Below, one piece after another: positions 2,836-22,154 of a DNA stretch of 33,239 nucleotides. This DNA is from Candidatus Firestoneibacteriota bacterium (GTDB lineage: Bacteria; Oederibacteriota; D2-FULL-39-29; JBBTED01). The stretch covers positions 1 through 33,239 of the forward strand of contig JBBTED010000042.1 in NCBI GenBank assembly GCA_038042445.1, written 5' to 3'. Under the pieces are notes generated by a model, which had not been told where the DNA came from, did no database searches, and was given only the letters and a program-made list of their open reading frames with translations. Each line of letters opens with the position of its first letter. Positions within the stretch are counted from its first letter, which is position 1. The position numbers and the translations under genes are program-made.

Positions 2836-5007
2836 TCACGGAGAATTTGCAGTACCGAGAATAGATTGTGCACGCCTCATATTTTCAATAGCTCCTCTGT
2901 GATTTGGATTTATGACGAGAACTTTTTCCCAGTAAAAAATTGCGTTTTTCATATCTCCTCTTGTTGCATAAATAATTCCAAGATTACTATACGCTTCGGC
3001 ATAATTAGGATTGTATTTTATATTTATTTCACATTCACTTAATGCATCATCTAATTTATCAAGTTTCATATATGCTATACACAAATTGTTATGTGCCTCT
3101 GCTGAAAATGGATTAACCATAAGAGCTCTTTTAAATTCTCTTACTGCATCATCATATTTCCCTTGTTTTCCATAAGACGTTCCAAGATTTACAAATCCAT
3201 CTGCAAAAGTAGGATTTATTGCAATTGTTTTTTTGAATTCTAAAACAGCTTCATCAAACATATTTCTTGATTCATAACTATTGCCAAGTCTCAGATGTAA
3301 TACTTCAATATCAGAACCAACATCACTGGCTACTACGAACATTTTTTTTGCTTTATTATCTTCACCTTTTTTAAACAAATACTCTCCGAAACATAGATAG
3401 TATTGCGATGTGACATCTCTTACCATAAAATCTTTATATATTGAAGAATCATCTATCCCACGAACTATATATTTCTCCCAAATTTTCTCTTCATTGTTAC
3501 TTTGAGATACTTCGTTCACCATAGCAAACTCAGGGTGCTCCTGCGGAGCATTTTTAACTTTATATACCAAGCCCAATGTTTCAATAGGAAATTCAAGTGC
3601 AATTTTTGCACCCATAACTCCATAATATATAGGTTTATCAGCAGTTAAAATTATTTTTGATTCAATCTGAACTCTTCTAAGTTGACGCTGATATGAATCA
3701 AGCCATTCCTCACCATAAATATATTTAAACACATTTCCCATTCTGTCATATATTGTAACTTGTGGATATGTTTTTTCCACTAAAGTAATATAACCAAGTG
3801 GAAATGTAAGATTATCACCTGCAGTAAATAAAATTGAATTATCTGAAACACTTTTAAGAACATTATTGGCATTATCATAAGCAGAAAAATTCCTACTTAT
3901 ATCTTTTTCAAAATAATTAGCTATAAGTGGTAAAGGCAAAATTAAAATACAGACAATTACAAAATATTTAACTTTGGAAATAAGCCATAACAAACCTGCA
4001 CCTATCCAAATTGCAAAAACAAAATAACATGGTATAAAAAAAACCTTAGCAAGGTATAATTCTTTTGGAGTTATTGGAAAATTTATTACAAGCAACACTC
4101 CTAAAGTTATCAAACAAAAAATACCTATTGTTAAAATGAGGATTTTTCTGCAAAACTTATATAACAATATTATTCCCGGCATAAAAAACAGAAATGGGTA
4201 AATTGTAAACTCATTTAATAGTAATTTAAAGTATTCCTGTAACTGGATTAAAAATAACCCAAGAGTCCTTGGGGTTTTTTCTAAACCTCCAAATTGCCTT
4301 CGGATTATATGATTAATAAATTTATCAAAGTTGTCCGGATTTCCCCAGTCTAACATAGGATTTGCAAGTGAACGAATTGGAATATAAAAATAAAACGTAA
4401 GCCCTATAAAAAAAACTCCAATAATAAAAATCCATTGTTTAAGTGGTATACCACGATATAAAAACAACATACAAATCAAATAAAATAGTGTCATTAACAT
4501 CATGGTATGGTGATTGCAAATACTTATTCCGCATATAAGAGAAAGAAGATACAAAAATTTCGTATTGTAATTTTTCTGCCAATTTATAAAAATATAAAGC
4601 GTAAGTGCAAGCATAAAAATATTCAAGGTATAAACTTCTGCTTCTACTGACTGCGACCACAGAGTACTTGAAAATGCAAAAAGAATAGCACTACAAAATG
4701 CCGCTATACGTGCAAATTTTTCATCAATCGCTAAAAATATTTTTAATGCAATATGAAATAATAACACTACAGCTAAAGCAGAAAAGAAAGCAGACATAAA
4801 TGTTATTTTAAATGCAGAATTACCGAATGGTATAAGGATACTAAAAACCTTGCCAAGTATACAATATAATGGATACCCTGGAGGATGTGCTATTCCAAGT
4901 ATAGCAGCACCTGTAATCAATTCACCGCTATCACCAACATAAACTGTAGGGACTAAAGTCCTAAGGTAAACAAATAATGAAGTAATAAATAATATTATAG
5001 AATACAT
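2836..5007 (-). CDS. DUF2723 (TMEM260-like GT-C glycosyltransferase) membrane protein with C-terminal TPRs
   Basis: GDSGELI...GIAHPPGYPLY and WSQSVEAEVYTL motifs, about 11 TM segments, about 5 TPRs (NPxxAEAHNNL). ATG 5007 preferred; ORF track start is TTG 5028. Confidence 0.88.
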   Translation of the reverse strand: MYSIILFITSLFVYLRTLVPTVYVGDSGELITGAAILGIAHPPGYPLYCILGKVFSILIPFGNSAFKITFMSAFFSALAVVLLFHIALKIFLAIDEKFARIAAFCSAILFAFSSTLWSQSVEAEVYTLNIFMLALTLYIFINWQKNYNTKFLYLLSLICGISICNHHTMMLMTLFYLICMLFLYRGIPLKQWIFIIGVFFIGLTFYFYIPIRSLANPMLDWGNPDNFDKFINHIIRRQFGGLEKTPRTLGLFLIQLQEYFKLLLNEFTIYPFLFFMPGIILLYKFCRKILILTIGIFCLITLGVLLVINFPITPKELYLAKVFFIPCYFVFAIWIGAGLLWLISKVKYFVIVCILILPLPLIANYFEKDISRNFSAYDNANNVLKSVSDNSILFTAGDNLTFPLGYITLVEKTYPQVTIYDRMGNVFKYIYGEEWLDSYQRQLRRVQIESKIILTADKPIYYGVMGAKIALEFPIETLGLVYKVKNAPQEHPEFAMVNEVSQSNNEEKIWEKYIVRGIDDSSIYKDFMVRDVTSQYYLCFGEYLFKKGEDNKAKKMFVVASDVGSDIEVLHLRLGNSYESRNMFDEAVLEFKKTIAINPTFADGFVNLGTSYGKQGKYDDAVREFKRALMVNPFSAEAHNNLCIAYMKLDKLDDALSECEINIKYNPNYAEAYSNLGIIYATRGDMKNAIFYWEKVLVINPNHRGAIENMRRAQSILGTANSP
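3501..3557. repeat. Repeat family A, copy 1 (in-frame within the DUF2723 gene)
   Basis: TTTGAGATACTTCG...TCAGGGTGCTCCTGCGGAGCATTTT matches 13819-13867 at both ends; hairpin TGCTCC-TGC-GGAGCA at 3536-3550. Confidence 0.75.
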
Positions 5008-5014
5008 TTTTATG

Positions 5015-5135
5015 CTATGTAAGACCAATTAATTTTATTGTAGAAATAGTTCCTTTACCTGCTTCACTTTCAACTTCAATAACGCCATTATGTTTAAGAT
5101 TGTTTAATAACTTCTACTATAAGAGAACCTGTCCA
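5015..5135 (-). pseudogene. Relic 3' fragment of a sensor histidine kinase (HATPase_c end)
   Basis: Minus frame 5092-5015 reads HNGVIEVESEAGKGTISTIKLIGLT*; the upstream shifted frame reads TGSLIVEVIKQ; in-frame stop upstream and no start codon. Confidence 0.65.
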
Positions 5136-5286: not shown

Positions 5287-5997
5287 CTAAATTGTGTATG
5301 CTAATGAAACAGCAAATTGCCCACTAGAATAATTGGTCCCGACAGAAGGAGTTATTAACTGATGAGTATATTCAACCAAAACTGCTCCTTGCATAGACCA
5401 AGCAATAGCAGTTCCCAGTGTAATATCAATTTGATAAGAATCACCAATAGTTCCAGAGATATTCCGGTAAAGCACTCCAGTATATGGAACAAAAGGAATA
5501 ACTAACTTGCTAACTCCAACTCCTAACAATCTCTGAGAACCATCAGTAGTTATTTCTCCAAGACCTGCAATCTTCACCTTCTTCGATAGTAATTTATAAC
5601 CACCACCAACAGCTACGGAAATAGGAAAATTTTCACCTTCGGTTATTAATGTATATTTTAACATTGGACCGTAACCTATAATCGAAGACTCAAAGCCTGA
5701 CGGTAATCCGCTTAGCGTTACAGAACCAACACCAAAAAGAATGTCCAGTTGATCAATTAAACCATAACCCACATAACCACCAAAACATGTTCCTTTATAG
5801 TCTTTGTTATTACTTACATTTGAATCCTGAATCCATGTTCCTAACCCTACAAACTTTCCTTTACCAATAGAATTAGCAGTAGTTAATAATTCTGCAGAAC
5901 TCATAGAAACTACAAAAAGCACCAAAAAACACAAAACTAATACTGTTTTCATATTTTTTCCAATTTTCATATTTGTTAATTCCACAATGCATTCCAT
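5287..5997 (-). CDS. Putative small outer-membrane beta-barrel protein
   Basis: Signal peptide (alternative start at 5952, MKTVLVLC...), Gly/aromatic-rich alternating strands, C-terminal strand FAVSLAYTI. Confidence 0.6.
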   Translation of the reverse strand: MECIVELTNMKIGKNMKTVLVLCFLVLFVVSMSSAELLTTANSIGKGKFVGLGTWIQDSNVSNNKDYKGTCFGGYVGYGLIDQLDILFGVGSVTLSGLPSGFESSIIGYGPMLKYTLITEGENFPISVAVGGGYKLLSKKVKIAGLGEITTDGSQRLLGVGVSKLVIPFVPYTGVLYRNISGTIGDSYQIDITLGTAIAWSMQGAVLVEYTHQLITPSVGTNYSSGQFAVSLAYTI

Positions 5998-14579: not shown

Positions 14580-16220
14580 CTATTTTATTTCTACAATATC
14601 TCCTGCTTCAATTGGTTTCTCAACTCTTAATCTTCTTGCTTCCGAAGCTTCAGGACCAACATATTCTACAATAATAGTAGCTATATATTCTTTCTTTTGC
14701 ATTAAGATTCTACCCTGTGCATCTTTTACAACTTCACCTAATTTACTTACTGTTAATTCCTGACCTATTTTTATATTATCCTGTGCACCTAAATTAATTA
14801 TTACTTTGTCTTCTTTTACCTGTAATACCTTGCCAACTATTGCTATCCGAACAGCAATTTTATTGCTTAACTGGCTAACTGCATCAGGCAGTTGACCTTC
14901 ACTGCTACATCTTTGCTGTTCTGCTAATATTATTTCCCCTTTTTCAACCTCAATAAAACGTATATTGATAATATATTGCTCACCAAGTTTATCTAAACTC
15001 CCAAGAATCATTATCTTCACATTAAGTAGCCTTCCTACTTCAATTGCACACTCTGTACTCGTACATCCTGTTTGCTGTAATGTCTGCTCTTTAAGTATCG
15101 CATCCATTTTCTCGCGCTCTAACACAATAAAACGTCCACTGCGGAATAATTCTGTACGCAAGAGATTTGACACTGTTGCTGATACATAGTCTGAAACATT
15201 ATTTGACACTAAATTAATTATAGCTATTGATAACTTTTCTGTAGAAAAGATGATTGGTCCCTCTGGCCTTATTGTAATTTTTTCTTCTACTTTTTTTATT
15301 TCTTCAGCTCTGCCAAATTGCCAATTAACTCCTATGCGATGACTTCCAAAAGTTTTAGATATAGAATTTATTGGATATGAAAATCCGTAGTCAACTCCAC
15401 CATCACCGAAAATATAGCTTGTTCCAATTGCAAATTCCCTTGAATTTACACCTGTCCTTAGTGCAGTTGTTTTGTCACTATTGTACCATTCTATTCCACC
15501 TGCTATATTTATATCTTCTTTACCATTAACCTTTTTATTCTTGTATGAAACATCTATTATAGGTATAAAATCACCTAATTTGTATGAACTCCCAATTCTT
15601 ATTTGCAATGGTAATTTACCTAAAGTATCATTAGCTAAAGATAAATTTGGCTCATTAATATTTTCACCTACCATCCCAATTGATAAATCAGATGTCAATT
15701 TTAAAAGCATTCCGACATCTATACTTGTACCTGTTTTAGCATATCCATTTTGGTTAAATAATGGATCTAACTTCGCATATTCGTTTTCAACATAAGCAAG
15801 ACCCACTAACTTTCCAGTTATACCTAACGATAAAACATCTTTACTTATATCCTTCGCATAAGAAACTGTTGCCATATACTCACGATATAAATCTGAGTAA
15901 AAATACATATAACCAACTCCGAGTGTTCCAATATTACCTAATGGCTGAACATAGCCTGCAAAACCCTGATTCAAATTATCATAATCTAATCCTAAATATG
16001 GCTTAGTATATATTAAATTAATCTCAGGATTTTTTAACTGTGATATTCCTGCAGGATTCCATAATATAGCACTAACATCATCGCTAATAGCAGTCCAAGC
16101 TCCTGCTAATCCTGACGCCTTTACACCTATTCTATCTTCAAATGCAGCTCTTGATGATATTGCATAAGTTAAAATTAAAATAATCAATCCTGTTTTTTTA
16201 AACATTTCATTTCTCATCAT
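14580..16220 (-). CDS. PorV/PorP(SprF)-like outer-membrane beta-barrel fused to CsgG/HfaB-like and FlgT-C-like domains
   Basis: Signal peptide; GLAGAWTAISDDVSAILWNPAG N-terminal motif; barrel ends SHRIGVNWQFG (~15312); RFIVLERxKMDAILKEQ...EVGRLL CsgG-like domain (~14860-15235); VIINLGAQDNIKIGQEL...GDIV FlgT-C-like domain. Confidence 0.72.
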   Translation of the reverse strand: MMRNEMFKKTGLIILILTYAISSRAAFEDRIGVKASGLAGAWTAISDDVSAILWNPAGISQLKNPEINLIYTKPYLGLDYDNLNQGFAGYVQPLGNIGTLGVGYMYFYSDLYREYMATVSYAKDISKDVLSLGITGKLVGLAYVENEYAKLDPLFNQNGYAKTGTSIDVGMLLKLTSDLSIGMVGENINEPNLSLANDTLGKLPLQIRIGSSYKLGDFIPIIDVSYKNKKVNGKEDINIAGGIEWYNSDKTTALRTGVNSREFAIGTSYIFGDGGVDYGFSYPINSISKTFGSHRIGVNWQFGRAEEIKKVEEKITIRPEGPIIFSTEKLSIAIINLVSNNVSDYVSATVSNLLRTELFRSGRFIVLEREKMDAILKEQTLQQTGCTSTECAIEVGRLLNVKIMILGSLDKLGEQYIINIRFIEVEKGEIILAEQQRCSSEGQLPDAVSQLSNKIAVRIAIVGKVLQVKEDKVIINLGAQDNIKIGQELTVSKLGEVVKDAQGRILMQKKEYIATIIVEYVGPEASEARRLRVEKPIEAGDIVEIK

Positions 16221-16247
16221 AGTTTTTCATGTCATTCCTGTGAACAG

Positions 16248-16388
16248 ACTGTGTCATAATTCTAAATTTCATTGATTTATCGGGCTTGATAAATCAAGCC
16301 CCTACAATCATCAATAAATTTAAATATTTTTGTAGGGGTCGGATTTATCCGACCCGGAAAAACCGATTTTTGTAGATTATGACACAGT
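16248..16388. mobile_element. 141-bp MITE-like element with 13-bp terminal inverted repeats enclosing a GTAG-type REP doublet
   Basis: ACTGTGTCATAAT(16248-16260) and ATTATGACACAGT(16376-16388) are perfect inverted repeats; internal REPs at 16281-16306 and 16331-16356 in inverted orientation. Confidence 0.75.
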
Positions 16389-16402
16389 TGTAGAACAACA
16401 TT

Positions 16403-19000
16403 TTACCTCGCTAAAATAACCGTGCCACGTTTTTTTATTATTCCTCCGATTTCCAATTGCCACAAATAAAGCCCATTTTCTAATTTATCTCCATTATCTG
16501 CTTTGCCATCCCAGGAAATATTGTTACTTAAATTTCGAACTAACAAACCATTTCTGCTAAATATCTTAATTGTTGTAATTTCATTATTCGGATTATCAAA
16601 ATAAAAACTAACAGAATCATTTGCTCCATCATCATTCGGTGTAAATGGATTTGGATTTGCAAGGACTTCTCCACCATAATAAGTGCTCGCACTTGTAACT
16701 GCCTTTATTGCATATAATCCTGTTTTGGATACAAATGCAGCCATAAATTTATTAATTGTGTCTATATCACTTTTGACTTTTTGCCATTTAATACCATCAT
16801 AATAATATATTGTAAGCTGTTGTGCAGCATTAGCCTCATCAACATCTGTATTAGCAATTTTGCCGTTTGTAATTGTGTAATAAATAGTTATAGGGACAGG
16901 TTTTAAGAAATTTTCCAATTTGCTTCCTGTTGATGCATCTGTCATCTGAAAATTGTATGCAATACCATCAGTAACAGTTGTATCTCTTGTTATAATTATA
17001 TTTACATTTTTATCTACTGAATCAGGTGGCACAACTATTTTGGTTTTACTTCCATCATTCGCTTCAACTGTTATTGTTTCTGTTGTATTTGTCGCTATTA
17101 CAATTGAAACTAAAGCAAAATCTACTGTTGTCGTTTGATTTGCTGAAACACTAATTCCAGTTTTTGTCTGTGTAGTATAACCACTTGCAGACACACGAAC
17201 ATCATAAGTCCCTGATGCTAATGCAATTGAATAATTACCAGTTGAATCTATGCTTGTAGATGATTTTAAAACTCCTATTTGTAATACTTCAACTGTTACC
17301 CCTGATATCGCCGTTGTCCCATCAGCCTTTGTAACCTTGCCAACAATTGTCCCAGTAGTAGTTGTTGTAGTTGTTATACCTGTCATATCCGCCTGAATTT
17401 CCGCCTGTGAAAGAGCCCGAGAGTAGATTTTTACTTCGTCAATAATACCTATAAATCCTCTAGTATCACCGTCATAAGGATTATCTCCAATATCTTCTCT
17501 AATAAAGTTAGTATCCCAATTGAAATTTTGAGAGAATGATGAACTTGCTACTTCAACACCATCATAAAACATTTTTACTATTGCTCCATTATAAGTTAAT
17601 ACAAAATAATGCCAACTCCCATCACTATAATTTACATTATATTCTACAATACCATTTGTTGCTCCTACATGTATTTGACAAGAAATATATTTTTGTGGAG
17701 AATCATTTAGTAATATTATAACATCATTTGAAGGTGCTCTATGCCTATATAAATGTCCTCCATTGTTGTATCCACCCTGTGGTGTAGATGTCTTAAACCA
17801 CATTGATATAGTAAAGTTATTATTAATCCCACTAAAAGGTTTTGAAATATTAATACCACTGTTCCCATCAAAATTTATTGCACCATTAACTTTACCTGTT
17901 GTCCAAGTGGCGCCAGATATTGTTCCGTTATTACTACTACCTGAACTATCCGCAGCAGTACTTCCACTTGCTTCATCAAATTTCCAATACCCAACTAATG
18001 AAGTAAGCTTCCAAACATCATTTTTTTTAGAGCCATCCGCCTCATTTCCACCAAATACAATCATTGAATTATCAGAAGAGTTGTATATTGCCGTATGATA
18101 TGACCTTGCCGAAGGAAGTGTGCCTAAAGGAGATATTTGTATCCAATTTGGTGATGCAGAAAGTGTTAGTTTCCAGACATCGTTTTTTTGAGGATCGTAT
18201 CCACCGAAAATAATCATTGAATTATCAGAAGGATTATAAATTGCTGTATGCAAGCCTCTTGCAGATGGTTGAGTTGCAGGTGAAAGTTGTGTCCAAGTTG
18301 GAGGAATTCCAAGAGAAAGCTTCCAGACATCACTTCTAGCAGGATACCAACCTCCATAGATAATCATAGAATTGTCAGAAGAATTATAAATTGCTGTATG
18401 TGCATTTCTGCCAGAAGGAGGTGTGCCTGAAGGAGAAAGCTGTGTCCAAGCTGGTGAAGAACCAAGTGATAACTTCCAAACATCATTATAGTAAGAACCA
18501 TTATAACCAGCAAATACAATCATAGAATTATCAGAAGAGTTATATATTGCTGTTGGAATTATTCTGCCACCTGGAGGTGTTCCAGAGGGAGATAACTGTA
18601 TCCAAGATGGTAACGCTCCTAAAGATAATTTCCAAACTTCGTTTCCATAAACACCATCATCCTTGCCAGCAAAAATAATCATAGAATTGTCAGAAGAATT
18701 ATATATTGCTGTGTGATATCTTCTTGCGTCAGGGGGTGTACCTGATGGAGATAATTGTGTCCATGTTGGTGAAGCTCCTAAAGATAATTTCCAAACATCG
18801 TTTTTAAGAGAACCCTCCCATCCCCCGAAAATAATCATAGAATTGTCAGAAGAATTATATATTGCTGTATGATTTACCCTTGCAGATGGAAGTGTACCTG
18901 ATGGTGATAACTGTATCCACGATTCAGCAAAGCATAAAATAGGAACAGCGACCATTATTGCAATTGTTAAAACCCAAATATATTTAACCTTGTTAAGCAT
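16403..19000 (-). CDS. Secreted Kelch-propeller / LamG / carboxypeptidase-regulatory-like protein with T9SS type-B-like (gliding-motility) C-terminal domain
   Basis: Signal peptide; six repeats WxQLSPSGTxPxxRxxHTAIYNSSDNSMIIFGG...NDVWKL; LVGYWKFDE...IIDEVKIYSRALS LamG domain; poly-Thr linker; NPNPFTPNDDGAND...IFSRNGLLV...WDG...GLYLW...GTVILAR C-terminus. Confidence 0.85.
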   Translation of the reverse strand: MLNKVKYIWVLTIAIMVAVPILCFAESWIQLSPSGTLPSARVNHTAIYNSSDNSMIIFGGWEGSLKNDVWKLSLGASPTWTQLSPSGTPPDARRYHTAIYNSSDNSMIIFAGKDDGVYGNEVWKLSLGALPSWIQLSPSGTPPGGRIIPTAIYNSSDNSMIVFAGYNGSYYNDVWKLSLGSSPAWTQLSPSGTPPSGRNAHTAIYNSSDNSMIIYGGWYPARSDVWKLSLGIPPTWTQLSPATQPSARGLHTAIYNPSDNSMIIFGGYDPQKNDVWKLTLSASPNWIQISPLGTLPSARSYHTAIYNSSDNSMIVFGGNEADGSKKNDVWKLTSLVGYWKFDEASGSTAADSSGSSNNGTISGATWTTGKVNGAINFDGNSGINISKPFSGINNNFTISMWFKTSTPQGGYNNGGHLYRHRAPSNDVIILLNDSPQKYISCQIHVGATNGIVEYNVNYSDGSWHYFVLTYNGAIVKMFYDGVEVASSSFSQNFNWDTNFIREDIGDNPYDGDTRGFIGIIDEVKIYSRALSQAEIQADMTGITTTTTTTGTIVGKVTKADGTTAISGVTVEVLQIGVLKSSTSIDSTGNYSIALASGTYDVRVSASGYTTQTKTGISVSANQTTTVDFALVSIVIATNTTETITVEANDGSKTKIVVPPDSVDKNVNIIITRDTTVTDGIAYNFQMTDASTGSKLENFLKPVPITIYYTITNGKIANTDVDEANAAQQLTIYYYDGIKWQKVKSDIDTINKFMAAFVSKTGLYAIKAVTSASTYYGGEVLANPNPFTPNDDGANDSVSFYFDNPNNEITTIKIFSRNGLLVRNLSNNISWDGKADNGDKLENGLYLWQLEIGGIIKKRGTVILAR

Positions 19001-19018
19001 ATATATTTTGTAACAATA

Positions 19019-19105
19019 ATGTAGAAGGGTCTTTAGACCCGATTAATTTTATCCGCCTTAGGCAGACAAATTCCTGTTCATTCGCCTCTAAAGAGGCTTC
19101 TACAT
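19019..19105. repeat. GTAG-type REP doublet (REPIN-like) with internal imperfect palindrome
   Basis: ATGTAGAAGGGTCTTTAGACCCGA(19019-19042) and reverse complement ATGTAGAAGCCTCTTTAGAGGCGA(19105-19082); TCCGCCTTAGGCAGA lies between them. Confidence 0.8.
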
Positions 19106-19142
19106 AATAAAAACATTTTTTATTGCAATCTCTAACAACTTC

Positions 19143-20744
19143 CTAAAACTTTATCTGGATGCCCATACTACTGGTTTTTTTGTATTTGTCATAAATTGGG
19201 TCATAAGTCTGACGAATAGTGAAATTTAAACCAGCCCCTCCACTTAAATCTAAAACTAATCTTAAAAAAGCAATACTGAAAGGGCTTTTTAATGTTAAGT
19301 AATTATGGTCTTTATCTAACTGTTGTTCAAATCCTATTCCTACTTCAGAAAATACTGGAATGAATTTTGCAGTGCAAACACCTTCTAATCTAACATAAGG
19401 ATATGACCAGCCACTTATACTGCTGTAATATTTTTCATAAGTACCTAATATATACAGCCAGGAAACAAATCTTGCACCTAATTCTCCATAATAACCCTGC
19501 TTTTTACCTTTATCTTTTGGATAAAGTCCCCAGTCAATTGGTCTGCTTTGTTCATAAAGTGCATTGAATAATCCGGGAATAAAATCAGAAGTGAATTCCC
19601 GGTATTCAGCCAAATAGTCAAAAATGGAAATTTTCCCTTTAATTCCAGGTGCTGCAAATCCCCAGCCATGACTTTTAATCTGGGCAATATCACCGTACAA
19701 TAATAAACGGACAGTATCTGATTGTAAAAGCTGAATACCAATATCACAGCCATATATTGAAGTTTCTTCAACTGATGAAACATTAACTATATCTCCATTT
19801 GCCAGTCTCATCAATTTATCTTTTGCAGGTTCTCTGTCCCAAACAGCAGTTGCACCAATAAAAACAGGAAAAGGTGAAGATAATAATTTATAATAACTTC
19901 TGCCTCCAATTATTCTTGTCCATGCAACATCATTTGTAATTGTCTCTACACCAAAATTTATATCGCTTAAGAAAAAGTCAAATTCTGTGCCCCATTTTCT
20001 GGCAAAAGCAGTAGGTTCCAAATTGGAATATCGCCTCATAATAAAACCATGCCCCAAAGTGACACTGTCAAGGACACCAAGTTTAGCATATAAATCTTCA
20101 CCCTTTTTGCCATATCTTATATGATGAAATGTATTGGTAAATATTGTCTTCCCGTCTTTCCACTCATTGTCTCTTATTCCATCATCATTCCACAAAAGTC
20201 TGATATCAAAACCTACACCCAATTTTTCATAAGTTAATTCTAAAAGAAGGCTTGTCATAAAATAAGTTTTCCCATCAACTGAAATAGCGCCAAAAACCCC
20301 ACCCCAATCAGTTCCCATACCTTCTTCTTTTTCTCCAGCTTTTTCAGTAATTTTACTTTGTTCTTCTGGTTTAACTCCTTCTGAAGGAATCTGTTCTTTA
20401 GATGTTTCTGGTATTTTAGGTGGTTCTACTTGAGTGCCTGGTTGTGTAGGTTTAGTTTCTTCTGTTGGCGTTATTTCTTCTAAATGTGGTTTACCTTTAT
20501 CGGTATCTGGTTTTTCTGGCTTAGCAGGTTTCTCCTGTTTGTCTGGTTTACCGGGTTCAGATGGCTTCGCTGGTTCTGCTCCACCACCTGGCTCACCAGG
20601 TTTTGCCGGTTCTGCCGGTTTAGTCCCTGATGGTGTTTCATCAGGAGGACCTTTCTTTTCATCTTTTGCAGCTACAGCTGTTAAAGAATTAAAAACAAAA
20701 CTCAAACTAATTATTACAGCAAAGATAATTTTTATCTTTTTCAT
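19143..20744 (-). CDS. Putative outer-membrane beta-barrel with Pro/Glu/Lys-rich N-terminal extension
   Basis: Signal peptide, about 115-aa low-complexity EPAKP region, then amphipathic strands and terminal Phe (GIQIKF); SD AGGAG. Confidence 0.65.
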   Translation of the reverse strand: MKKIKIIFAVIISLSFVFNSLTAVAAKDEKKGPPDETPSGTKPAEPAKPGEPGGGAEPAKPSEPGKPDKQEKPAKPEKPDTDKGKPHLEEITPTEETKPTQPGTQVEPPKIPETSKEQIPSEGVKPEEQSKITEKAGEKEEGMGTDWGGVFGAISVDGKTYFMTSLLLELTYEKLGVGFDIRLLWNDDGIRDNEWKDGKTIFTNTFHHIRYGKKGEDLYAKLGVLDSVTLGHGFIMRRYSNLEPTAFARKWGTEFDFFLSDINFGVETITNDVAWTRIIGGRSYYKLLSSPFPVFIGATAVWDREPAKDKLMRLANGDIVNVSSVEETSIYGCDIGIQLLQSDTVRLLLYGDIAQIKSHGWGFAAPGIKGKISIFDYLAEYREFTSDFIPGLFNALYEQSRPIDWGLYPKDKGKKQGYYGELGARFVSWLYILGTYEKYYSSISGWSYPYVRLEGVCTAKFIPVFSEVGIGFEQQLDKDHNYLTLKSPFSIAFLRLVLDLSGGAGLNFTIRQTYDPIYDKYKKTSSMGIQIKF

Positions 20745-20810
20745 TTCTTGTTTTCTCCTATTTTATACGCCCGTCTAACTATTTTTTACAATTCTGTCTT
20801 TCTTGCTAAA

Positions 20811-20838
20811 ATTATACTAAATTCTTGCCTATAGTCAA
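20811..20838 (-). promoter_or_regulatory. Sigma70 promoter for the envelope gene cluster
   Basis: TTGACT(20838-20833)-16 nt-TATAAT(20816-20811). Confidence 0.7.
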
Positions 20839-20899
20839 GTAGTTTTTGCCTATTGTGAACTATTTTTATAGACAATAATTTTATACACTATAGGCAAAA
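20825..20899. promoter_or_regulatory. Array of four TTG(C/T)CTAT half-sites, putative XRE operator
   Basis: TTGCCTATAGT 20825-35, TTTTGCCTATTGTG 20844-57, inverted TATAGACAA 20867-75, inverted CACTATAGGCAAAA 20886-99. Confidence 0.65.
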
Positions 20900-20915
20900 G
20901 ATATGGGGGTAATAA

Positions 20916-21272
20916 ATGGAAGATATTGTAAAAGTCATAGGAAAAAGGATAAAACAGTTAAGAATAGAAAAAGGTTATAGTAAGACACAATTTGCTAAAT
21001 TATCTGGTGTTCATATTGCCTGGATTAGTCGGGTAGAACAAGGGAAACGTGAAACAGGTAAAAGTATAAGCCCTTCTATTACTATATTACAAAAAATTGC
21101 TATAGCATTAGGTGTTCCTATTGAAACATTATTAAAGGAATCAATTGTTAAAAAATATACTTTTCCTTCGGATAAAACAATAGTTGAAGAACTAAAAGAG
21201 CTATTAAAAACACAAGCACCGGAAAATAAAGCATTATTTATTCAAGTAGCAAGGAAAATATTAAGAAAATAA
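20916..21272 (+). CDS. XRE/Cro-family HTH transcriptional regulator
   Basis: IGKRIKQLR...SKTQFAKLSGVHIAWISRVEQG...PSITILQKIAIAL. Confidence 0.92.
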   Translation: MEDIVKVIGKRIKQLRIEKGYSKTQFAKLSGVHIAWISRVEQGKRETGKSISPSITILQKIAIALGVPIETLLKESIVKKYTFPSDKTIVEELKELLKTQAPENKALFIQVARKILRK

Positions 21273-21286
21273 AAATTGCATTATTT

Positions 21287-21715
21287 TTATTTTGTTTCAT
21301 TCTCCAAAATTACAGTTGCTAATTTCACAACTAATTTTATTTGTTCTGTAAACATTTTTACAACCTGCCACCTGAAATTAAGATATCTATGTGCAAGTCT
21401 ATTTCTCTGAATAGCTAATTTTGCTAATTGTTCCTGTTCTTCCTCTGAGAAATTAAAAAATTTACTGCATTTTTTCAAAACATCACTATAACTTTCAGCA
21501 GAAATTCCATTTTCAGCTAAAATGGTGCCAGAAATTTCTATAAGAGCAGTTAAAATATTTTCGACTGTTTTGTCTGTCAATTTTTGTAATTTTTTATCAT
21601 CCTTATAATCCTGCCATGTTTTATTTGCATATTCTTCTTTAAATTCTTTTATCTCATCCAAAATAAATTGAATGGATTCAGCAATTCTGCCTTTTGCATA
21701 TTGAAATTCAGACAT
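21287..21715 (-). CDS. HEPN (DUF86/HepT-like) RNase toxin
   Basis: RNRLAHRY fits RX4HXY; overlaps the MNT gene. Confidence 0.88.
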   Translation of the reverse strand: MSEFQYAKGRIAESIQFILDEIKEFKEEYANKTWQDYKDDKKLQKLTDKTVENILTALIEISGTILAENGISAESYSDVLKKCSKFFNFSEEEQEQLAKLAIQRNRLAHRYLNFRWQVVKMFTEQIKLVVKLATVILENETK

Positions 21716-22154
21716 TTTTTATTGACTCCAAAGTTTTTTTTGCAGCCATAAGCTGCCAGCCTATACCAAAAACATTAAAATCTTCCATATTGTATATAGC
21801 TTTATTTTTTAGATAAACATACTTTTGGTAATCCTTAATAAAAATAGGCTCACCAAGAACTATTGCATTATAATAAAGCATTGGTTTATTAAAATCAAGG
21901 TCTATTGAAATAACATTTACATCTAAATTAATCTCATTGGATAAAGATAGGGATATATCTGTTATATATTCAAAACATTCCTCTTTAGATAAAGACTCTT
22001 TAGAAAAAACAACTGCGATATCTATATCAGAATCTTGTTTTGGAAAACCTCTTGCCCATGAACCATATAAAAATACATTTTCTATTTCATATAAAAATGT
22101 ATTTTCTTTAAAAAATTCTTTAAGATGCTTTATCATCTCTTCTTTTGTTTTCAT
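21708..22154 (-). CDS. Minimal nucleotidyltransferase (MntA-like antitoxin)
   Basis: GS-WARGFPKQDS-DID fits GSX10DXD. Confidence 0.9.
   Translation of the reverse strand: MKTKEEMIKHLKEFFKENTFLYEIENVFLYGSWARGFPKQDSDIDIAVVFSKESLSKEECFEYITDISLSLSNEINLDVNVISIDLDFNKPMLYYNAIVLGEPIFIKDYQKYVYLKNKAIYNMEDFNVFGIGWQLMAAKKTLESIKNV

Follow-up and report, generated by a model that had tools for sequence, protein, structure and literature searches.

In the Bacteroidota secretion system of type 9 (T9SS), cargo proteins whose C-terminal domain (CTD) is of type B form cognate pairs with barrels of the PorP/SprF kind, as set out in PMC12618676 and PMC9143113. According to PMC12618676, mutagenesis of the known motifs left the specificity of these carriers open. 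In Flavobacterium, extracting a loaded carrier from the SprA pore needs the GldLM motor and energy (PMC10994853), and SprF and PorG are linked to GldK through tails with a CxC motif (PMC12635249). The system and its tails are described as exclusive to Bacteroidota, or to the Fibrobacterota-Chlorobiota-Bacteroidota (FCB) group, in PMC12618676, 10.1101/031039, PMC10994853, PMC8754138 and PMC12398890. Here we describe a locus on contig JBBTED010000042.1 of Candidatus Firestoneibacteriota bacterium GCA_038042445.1, whose 33,239 nucleotides are referred to below as the window. It holds a cargo gene with a CTD-like tail (gene B) and, downstream of it, a gene for a carrier-like barrel (gene C). On balance, we think it probable that the tail-bearing product of gene B is exported through a SprA-like pore and held on the cell surface by barrel C, without the known GldKLMN motor. 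No such system is described in this lineage in the literature consulted, which included PMC8542988 and PMC12204202 and consisted mainly of non-subscription texts without their supplements; the family names PorV and CTD are already attached to such genes in public databases.

The window corresponds to contig C42 of a host genome of 2.81 Mb, which is 90% complete with 2.2% contamination. An earlier interpretation of this DNA (the sequence-only reading) had proposed a secretion module of three co-oriented minus-strand genes with signal-peptide-like starts, together with a divergent XRE regulator, in a window also holding plsY, S1 and c-di-GMP genes. All of these elements are present, and the three genes would be transcribed in the order A, B, C, with gaps of 142 base pairs (bp) between genes A and B and 183 bp between genes B and C. 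We regard the locus as a two-gene unit (B and C) and not as a three-gene module. The features of this unit are the following, with protein positions in amino acids (aa):

16403 to 19000, minus strand: gene B, cargo, 865 aa, with a signal-peptide-like start (by eye)
16688 to 17098, minus strand: pre-tail spacer domain of gene B, aa 635-771, from alignments (ZU5-like as a lead only)
16406 to 16687, minus strand: type-B-like T9SS C-terminal domain of gene B, aa 772-865 (TIGR04131, PF13585)
16240 to 16400: dispersed repeat, palindromic and about 145 bp long, separating genes B and C and resembling repetitive extragenic palindromes or miniature inverted-repeat transposable elements (REP/MITE-like)
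14580 to 16220, minus strand: gene C, putative cognate carrier, 546 aa, with a signal-peptide-like start (by eye)
15315 to 16145, minus strand: carrier barrel of gene C, aa 26-302, with an NPAG motif and 14 predicted strands (AlphaFold2 strand list)
14583 to 15242, minus strand: CsgG/TolB_N-like alpha/beta domain and FlgT_C beta domain of gene C, after the last barrel strand (PF03783, PF13036, PF04052, PF16538)

Upstream of the spacer and the tail, Pfam and NCBIfam assign to gene B a Kelch propeller (around aa 26-335), a LamG domain (379-536) and a carboxypeptidase-regulatory-like Ig domain (551-630). The tail reads NPNPFTPNDDGAND...WDG...GLY...GTVILAR at the C-terminus. Its assignment in the sequence-only reading to the T9SS type is upheld by scores above the cut-offs of both TIGR04131 (36 bits for the whole of gene B and 42.6 bits for the tail alone, cut-off 35) and PF13585 (39.7 bits, cut-off 27). 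The tail also matches FlgD_ig (29.2 bits, cut-off 27), further FlgD models and structures and, weakly, the type A CTD model. TIGR04131 is matched at E<=0.01 by 18/23 clade tails. For the pre-tail spacer, Atlas returned ZU5 at 0.81, which we take only as a lead, and structural neighbours that belong to SLH, Gram-positive-anchor and CTD proteins.

The NPAG-motif barrel is likewise confirmed. Gene C has the motif WNPAG and its best family match is NF033709 PorV/PorQ (E 5.7e-18; 65.6 bits, below the cut-off of 90), with TIGR03519 PorP/SprF matching at E 1.6e-5 (24.5-27.2 bits, below the cut-off of 90.55). Clade carriers match PorV/PorQ in 23/23 cases and PorP/SprF in 12/23, and the first match of their profile is PorV 6H3I_F (E 9.9e-7). 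Profiles were needed for such comparisons, as single-sequence searches of solved structures returned nothing for SprA, gene C or the gene C tail. The AlphaFold2 model of gene C, with a mean predicted local distance difference test (pLDDT) of 83 and a predicted template modelling score (pTM) of 0.55, shows a 14-strand barrel followed, after a disordered linker, by one alpha/beta and one beta domain. Foldseek with this model found FlgT 3W1E first (E 8.9e-12) and PorV 8GL6_F second (E 1.3e-11, root mean square deviation (rmsd) 4.3 A), and the barrel fits PorV with an rmsd of 4.3-4.5 A, compared with about 9-11.5 A for FadL. The C-terminus, a CsgG/LpoB/TolB_N-like domain joined to FlgT_C, extends beyond what the sequence-only reading described, and the part past the last strand would lie in the periplasm. 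By fold and by Pfam, the two domains resemble Vibrio FlgT (3W1E; 8Z5N ring), CsgG/HfaB, LpoB and TolB-N. Unlike Vibrio FlgT, they follow a carrier barrel in one and the same protein, and the genome has neither FliG nor FlhA. A second group of genes in the host genome has an N-terminal CsgG-like domain and a barrel-end-like C-terminus (L180, C121:5736, C133:14111, C136:35101 and C95:17503), and several of these are followed downstream by lipoprotein-like genes.

The model of the gene B tail in complex with barrel C reached interaction prediction scores (ipSAE) of 0.90, 0.89 and 0.90, compared with 0.01 for the best of three controls. At least 99% of contacts are common to the runs, and the partners have pLDDT values of at least 90. 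The ipSAE mark is reached by 116/157 solved pairs versus 2/215 mismatched pairs, rates that are only approximate for the alignments used here. In the model, the NPNPF stretch, the GLY stretch and the last strand of the tail contact the plug and loops of barrel C, with the last strand (KRGTVILAR) packing on Y112, D79 and Y143. Barrel C is therefore predicted, from this model, to bind the gene B tail.

The pair is not isolated in its genome. NF033709 has 26 matches there, 12 of them over the cut-off, and profiles made from genes of the host genome itself gave a count of 25 tail genes and 26 barrels. A barrel lies directly downstream of 13/25 tail genes (null mean 0.22, maximum 4 in 5000 shuffles) and directly upstream of three further ones; genes B and C form one of about 16 such pairs. 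The analysis of co-divergence used 50 loci, of which 30 were returned for barrel C (from 13 genomes of the class) and 20 were chosen regions of the host genome. These gave 53 scored barrels, and after removal of 13 with no tail gene in range and two duplicates, 38 pairs remained. Tail and barrel distances are correlated over the 38 pairs (r=0.68, p=0.0003) and over the 15 pairs of the host genome (r=0.57, p=0.0004). In 27/38 pairs tail and barrel have matching nearest neighbours, where 3.1 are expected. According to the trees, type-A-like tails are likewise paired with private barrels. The cargoes of the closest sister pairs (L184, L185 and L186) have passengers of 2482, 852 and 1747 aa, and gene B has in common with them only about the last 220-320 aa. 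These sequences suggest that passengers have been swapped while tail and barrel were inherited together. With binding predicted and pairs recurring, the proposal of a tail-plus-partner-barrel system has held. Elsewhere in the host genome, six tail genes and five barrels form an array (L190; C63:3561-46879) directly downstream of a secretin/PilM/pilin-like cluster. The WD40 matches of profile A5 were set aside as repeat artefacts.

In its organization, the pair is similar to SprB-SprF of Flavobacterium johnsoniae and PG1035-PorP-PorE of Porphyromonas gingivalis, with a TIGR04131-type tail and the carrier directly downstream. It also has in common with type-B CTD/PorP-SprF pairs the use of one carrier per cargo, a 14-strand FadL-family barrel and a likely uncleaved, non-covalent anchoring. 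In contrast to the type-B pairs of Bacteroidota, the host is outside FCB, the carriers are closer to PorV/PorQ, and type-A-like tails also have private barrels. SprF and PorP-PorE differ further, as gene C has no CxC tail and its barrel is fused to FlgT-like domains, with no separate PorE. Genes B and C behave as a type-B T9SS cargo with a private carrier. They are not counted here among T9SS members, given that neither motor nor ring was found and that PorU is missing.

A single SprA-like open reading frame (ORF) was found in the host genome, on another contig than the pair (C87:24881-30109; 1742 aa from the first possible start). Five segments of it, in order, match TIGR04189 (best E 4.7e-32). 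A 17-sequence SprA profile finds F. johnsoniae SprA 6H3I_A at E 1.5e-42. Its match to an annotated SprA of Parabacteroides has E 2.9e-61, and with this Parabacteroides protein as query the C87 ORF is the only one in the host genome at E<0.1 (E 5.5e-21). Collinear and reciprocal sequence homology indicates that the ORF is a true, shortened SprA. The resemblance to the SprA/Sov systems with PorV (6H3I, 8GL6; PMC10994853) comprises this collinear homology, the single copy, a C-terminal Phe and PorV-like barrels whose loops are predicted to bind the tail. Unlike in those systems, SprA has about 1,720 aa versus 2,403, GldL, GldM and GldN were not found in the host genome, GldK is partial, and C25 is lacking. 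Because sprA lies on another contig, the gene B-C pair is not a self-contained exporter, and what the genome holds is a T9SS core without a detected motor. The export system put forward in the sequence-only reading stands as regards the cargo-carrier pair, and not as a self-contained unit.

The best full-length relatives of this SprA belong to Ca. Firestonebacteria (42-50% identity, with 80 of 274 records kept), followed by Elusimicrobia, Goldiibacteriota, FCPU426 and others; among genomes of the same class the identity is 45-52%. Judged by these relatives, the host belongs with Ca. Firestonebacteria and lies outside FCB, which agrees with the sequence-only reading in so far as that found the DNA unlike Bacteroidota, and it is not an FCB organism with a standard T9SS. 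Firestonebacteria are placed beside Goldbacteria and Elusimicrobia, with flagellar genes noted as absent, in PMC7031533.

The distribution of the core was assessed in 99 genomes of the phylum, 60 of them at least 90% complete; kin among them are not independent. SprA relatives occur in 93/99 genomes and in 59/60 of the more complete ones, all 60 of which have carriers (8-30 each among the matches listed) and tails (6-74 matches each). SprA and carriers are present together in 13/13 genomes of the class. Among 80 SprA loci, 24 hold a carrier gene and 24 a tail gene. Genes resembling lptF/G, labelled by eye, lie beside sprA in 68/80 of these loci, and comF-like genes in 39/80 (L036-L115). In other families of the phylum, SprA carries N-terminal fibronectin-III repeats, and a related secreted repeat protein comes after it (L020-L035).

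Motor and ring components gave a different picture. GldM was matched in 0/99 genomes, and GldL_N and GldN in 0/60 each, with Gld models that matched in no positive control; the control attempted, a 388-kb Parabacteroides record with sprA, is only part of that genome and gave no GldM match. For GldK, searched in the host genome, four ORFs show partial matches that do not exceed 70 bits (cut-off 350), and by eye they have neither lipoprotein starts nor gldLMN-like neighbours. The genome search for SprA and GldK/L/M/N suggested with the sequence-only reading therefore yielded one SprA, no match to GldL, GldM or GldN and a GldK that is partial. By eye, no gld-like cluster is present among the 32 commonest gene clusters at the 80 SprA loci, and a crude scan for membrane architecture, run over 2516 genes, yielded two candidate motor pairs, neither of them convincing on inspection by eye. 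The SprF-type CxC motif occurs in 0/28 barrel tails of the host genome. As to other sources of energy, an ABC permease just upstream of sprA was rejected because it lies beside no other SprA (29 loci with flanks of about 1.5 kb), and an ExbB-ExbD-TonB operon with a carrier was not found in the host genome. An orphan MotA/MotB pair is present (L188:4777-6931, C72), and is found at 63-70% identity in 4/13 genomes of the class, too few for a general motor; for the phylum the figure is 49/60 genomes, many of them possibly flagellar. FliG and FlhA are absent from the host genome (controls matched in 4/14). Overall, Ton and orphan MotAB candidates fit poorly as the energy source.

Peptidase C25, the family of the PorU sortase, was not found in the host genome at its 90% completeness, and the same search matched in 8/60 phylum genomes. 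Several relatives have a conserved spacer before the tail that ends in HFS, or in HLS or HLT in others (L142, L150, L152-L154, L156, L167 and L174), a motif of self-cleaving ZU5/Nup98 domains. Some cargoes may self-cleave in this way in place of PorU. For gene B itself, autocleavage before the tail was discarded, the motif being degenerate there (KTG).

In the mechanism that we favour, Sec would export cargo B and carrier C, as their signal peptides suggest. The gene B tail would enter the single SprA-like pore, where homology is evident and use by this cargo is presumed. The tail would then dock onto barrel C at its plug and loops, as predicted, and the cargo would stay bound with its tail uncleaved, in view of the missing C25 sortase, the lack of HFS in gene B and the type-B precedent. 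The loaded carrier would likely be released by a route other than GldLM-GldKN, which is the weakest step. Our single best guess is a hand-over to a periplasmic FlgT/CsgG-like scaffold, fused to barrel C, that would replace PorE/GldKN; it draws on the presence of CsgG/FlgT-like domains in 13/13 genomes of the class and of a barrel and a CsgG-like domain in one frame in 7/13 (coordinates compared by hand). Each cargo would keep its own carrier, passengers being swappable and tail and barrel co-inherited. The broader proposal that a phylum outside FCB has a T9SS core (SprA, private carriers and both tail classes) wholly without GldKLMN, in which an FlgT/CsgG-like scaffold takes the loaded carriers, is tentative and somewhat doubtful.

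Several observations weigh against export by a SprA-like pore and barrel C without the known motor. Gene C is below the cut-off of every carrier family, SprA scores 110 bits where TIGR04189 has a cut-off of 200, and the PorV family model also matches in Bacteroides thetaiotaomicron, which is not known to have a T9SS. Nine of the 25 tail genes have no adjacent barrel. Rows from sister genomes inflate the 38-pair correlation, and linked duplication alone would also give congruent trees, so that co-divergence shows inheritance as a unit and not binding. Resemblance to PorV-CTD structures already solved may account for the result of the complex, and near relatives of true partners reach the ipSAE mark as well, so that specificity for the cognate partner is putative. 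The barrel-CsgG fusion was not seen in 6/13 genomes of the class and a tail of any kind that is long occurs in only 10/25 full-length barrels of the host genome, which means that a fused scaffold cannot be the rule. Furthermore, the motor requirement in Flavobacterium makes a motor-free route surprising, and without a working positive control in the Gld searches a diverged motor is possible. A complete but highly diverged T9SS, with a GldLM-like motor and a GldKN-like ring that escape models trained on Bacteroidota, is the alternative to which these last points lead, together with the low SprA score and the four partial GldK matches. We consider it possible but on the whole unlikely, as the same kind of models still detect SprA, carriers and tails, the GldK matches lack the expected score, starts and neighbours, neither the architecture scan nor the clusters at SprA loci show a convincing motor, and the carriers have no CxC tails.

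The remaining alternatives concern the source of energy and the role of the barrel. In Vibrio, the ring that FlgT builds is linked to stator recruitment, and a Ton-type or orphan MotAB proton motor could pull the carrier from SprA, perhaps via the FlgT-like tail. The MotAB pair in a genome without FliG or FlhA fits this idea, as does the barrel-CsgG fusion in 4/4 class genomes with MotA. It is nevertheless improbable, with MotA in 4/13 genomes of the class against SprA and carriers in all of them, three fusion-bearing genomes without MotA (two of them 98% and 94% complete) and 0/3 MotA/ExbB genes of the host genome in an operon with a carrier. We give equally little weight to a two-partner system in which export or capture of the cargo falls to barrel C itself and the SprA homologue serves another purpose. 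Strict gene pairing, a sprA on another contig and the lptF/G-like flanks of most SprA loci would agree with it, but a folded propeller does not fit through a plugged 14-strand barrel of the FadL/PorV family, docking of the tail is predicted to be on the loops as on PorV, and SprA accompanies tails and carriers in 59/60 genomes, with the carrier and tail genes already mentioned at its loci. Finally, a generic FlgD-type Ig tail beside a FadL-like uptake channel, adjacent by accident, would explain the FlgD matches and the presence of FadL among the fold matches. This is hardly credible given the excess of adjacency over chance, the co-divergence, the contrast between the complex and its controls, the lack of FliG and FlhA and the better fit of PorV than of FadL to gene C.

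If pore, carriers and dozens of cargoes are kept in nearly every genome of a lineage without a detectable motor, then either the pore is driven in another way or the motor is of an unrecognised kind. Such a lineage also matters for the question of which parts of the T9SS came together first. A core wholly free of GldKLMN, if true, would be a second, and possibly older, way to drive a type 9 pore. The many natural tail-barrel pairs are also a ready set for questions of carrier specificity. As an instance of the pattern the locus is ordinary, and what it adds is the FlgT-like fusion; the contributions made here are the co-divergence of pairs, the binding model, this fusion and the exclusion of gene A.

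Gene A and its surroundings comprise the following features:

19143 to 20744, minus strand: gene A, 533 aa, with a signal-peptide-like start (by eye), a Pro/Glu/Lys-rich linker and a large porin-like barrel of an unnamed family
20811 to 20897: promoter-like site for gene A and three 14-bp near-palindromes (20825-20838, 20846-20859 and 20884-20897)
20916 to 21272, plus strand: divergent XRE/HTH_3 regulator, 118 aa (PF01381)

Gene A has no Pfam match and no solved relative by sequence. By profile it weakly resembles Leptospira ImpL63 (NF047543; E 1.7e-5, 23.7 bits), far below the cut-off of 1000. Its model (pLDDT 80, pTM 0.74) is a barrel of about 20 strands, loosely similar by fold to AlgE/OprD-type porins (AlgE and Occ, TM only 0.39-0.49), with no PorV or FadL among the top 50 fold matches listed. 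The sequence-only reading had counted gene A as a partner barrel, which the data do not sustain: its profile gives no alignment with the carriers (hhalign probability 0.2%), the predicted fold is another one, and within about 1.5 kb a gene for a tail or a carrier occurs at 0/14 other gene A loci, two of them paralogues in the host genome. None of these 14 loci has an XRE gene beside it, the three sister pairs have neither gene A nor an XRE match nearby, and gene A relatives occur in 12/99 genomes versus 93/99 for SprA. A three-gene module in which gene A is a second barrel of the machine under XRE control would be compatible with export of gene B through SprA onto barrel C, and co-transcription is possible, since genes A and B are on the same strand, separated by 142 bp and with no terminator-like site on the coding strand between them. 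With the counts and the unrelated fold just given, we judge it quite unlikely; it is unlikely that gene A belongs to the same machine as genes B and C, and gene A and XRE look like neighbours. Most relatives of gene A in the class have an N-terminal FecR domain joined by the Pro/Glu/Lys linker (L117-L128), and this FecR domain is missing from the copy in the window; such a pairing is not otherwise known for an outer-membrane barrel. Atlas neighbours of gene A are unnamed and come mostly from Spirochaetota and Myxococcota.

Regarding promoters, the sequence-only reading was right on a site, TTGACT-16-TATAAT at 20838-20811, with one near-palindrome overlapping the -35 element, and not on the window as a whole, where 42 promoter-like sites compare with 33.2 +/- 6.1 by chance. 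The near-palindrome has five matches in the window versus 1.9 expected (4/100 shuffles as high), a significance that is inflated because the motif was derived from 20811-20897 itself. From their sequence and position, the three copies are likely the XRE operator, and XRE likely controls itself and gene A, with no conserved link to the gene B-C pair. A genome-wide XRE regulon was rejected, as the cluster was found only once in the genome (pre-filtered windows).

Beyond XRE, a nucleotidyltransferase and a HepT-like gene form an MNT-HEPN toxin-antitoxin-type pair (window 21287-22154). At the other end, the window has an FG-GAP propeller protein (136-1527), cut by the contig end region, a TMEM260-like glycosyltransferase with TPR (2836-5028) and a weak DUF6588 match (5287-5997); several TMEM260-like starts, judged by eye, are also found near other cargo-barrel pairs (C163, C21). 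The repeat between genes B and C has copies of 141-149 bp with 91-94% identity on three other contigs, and shorter copies on more.

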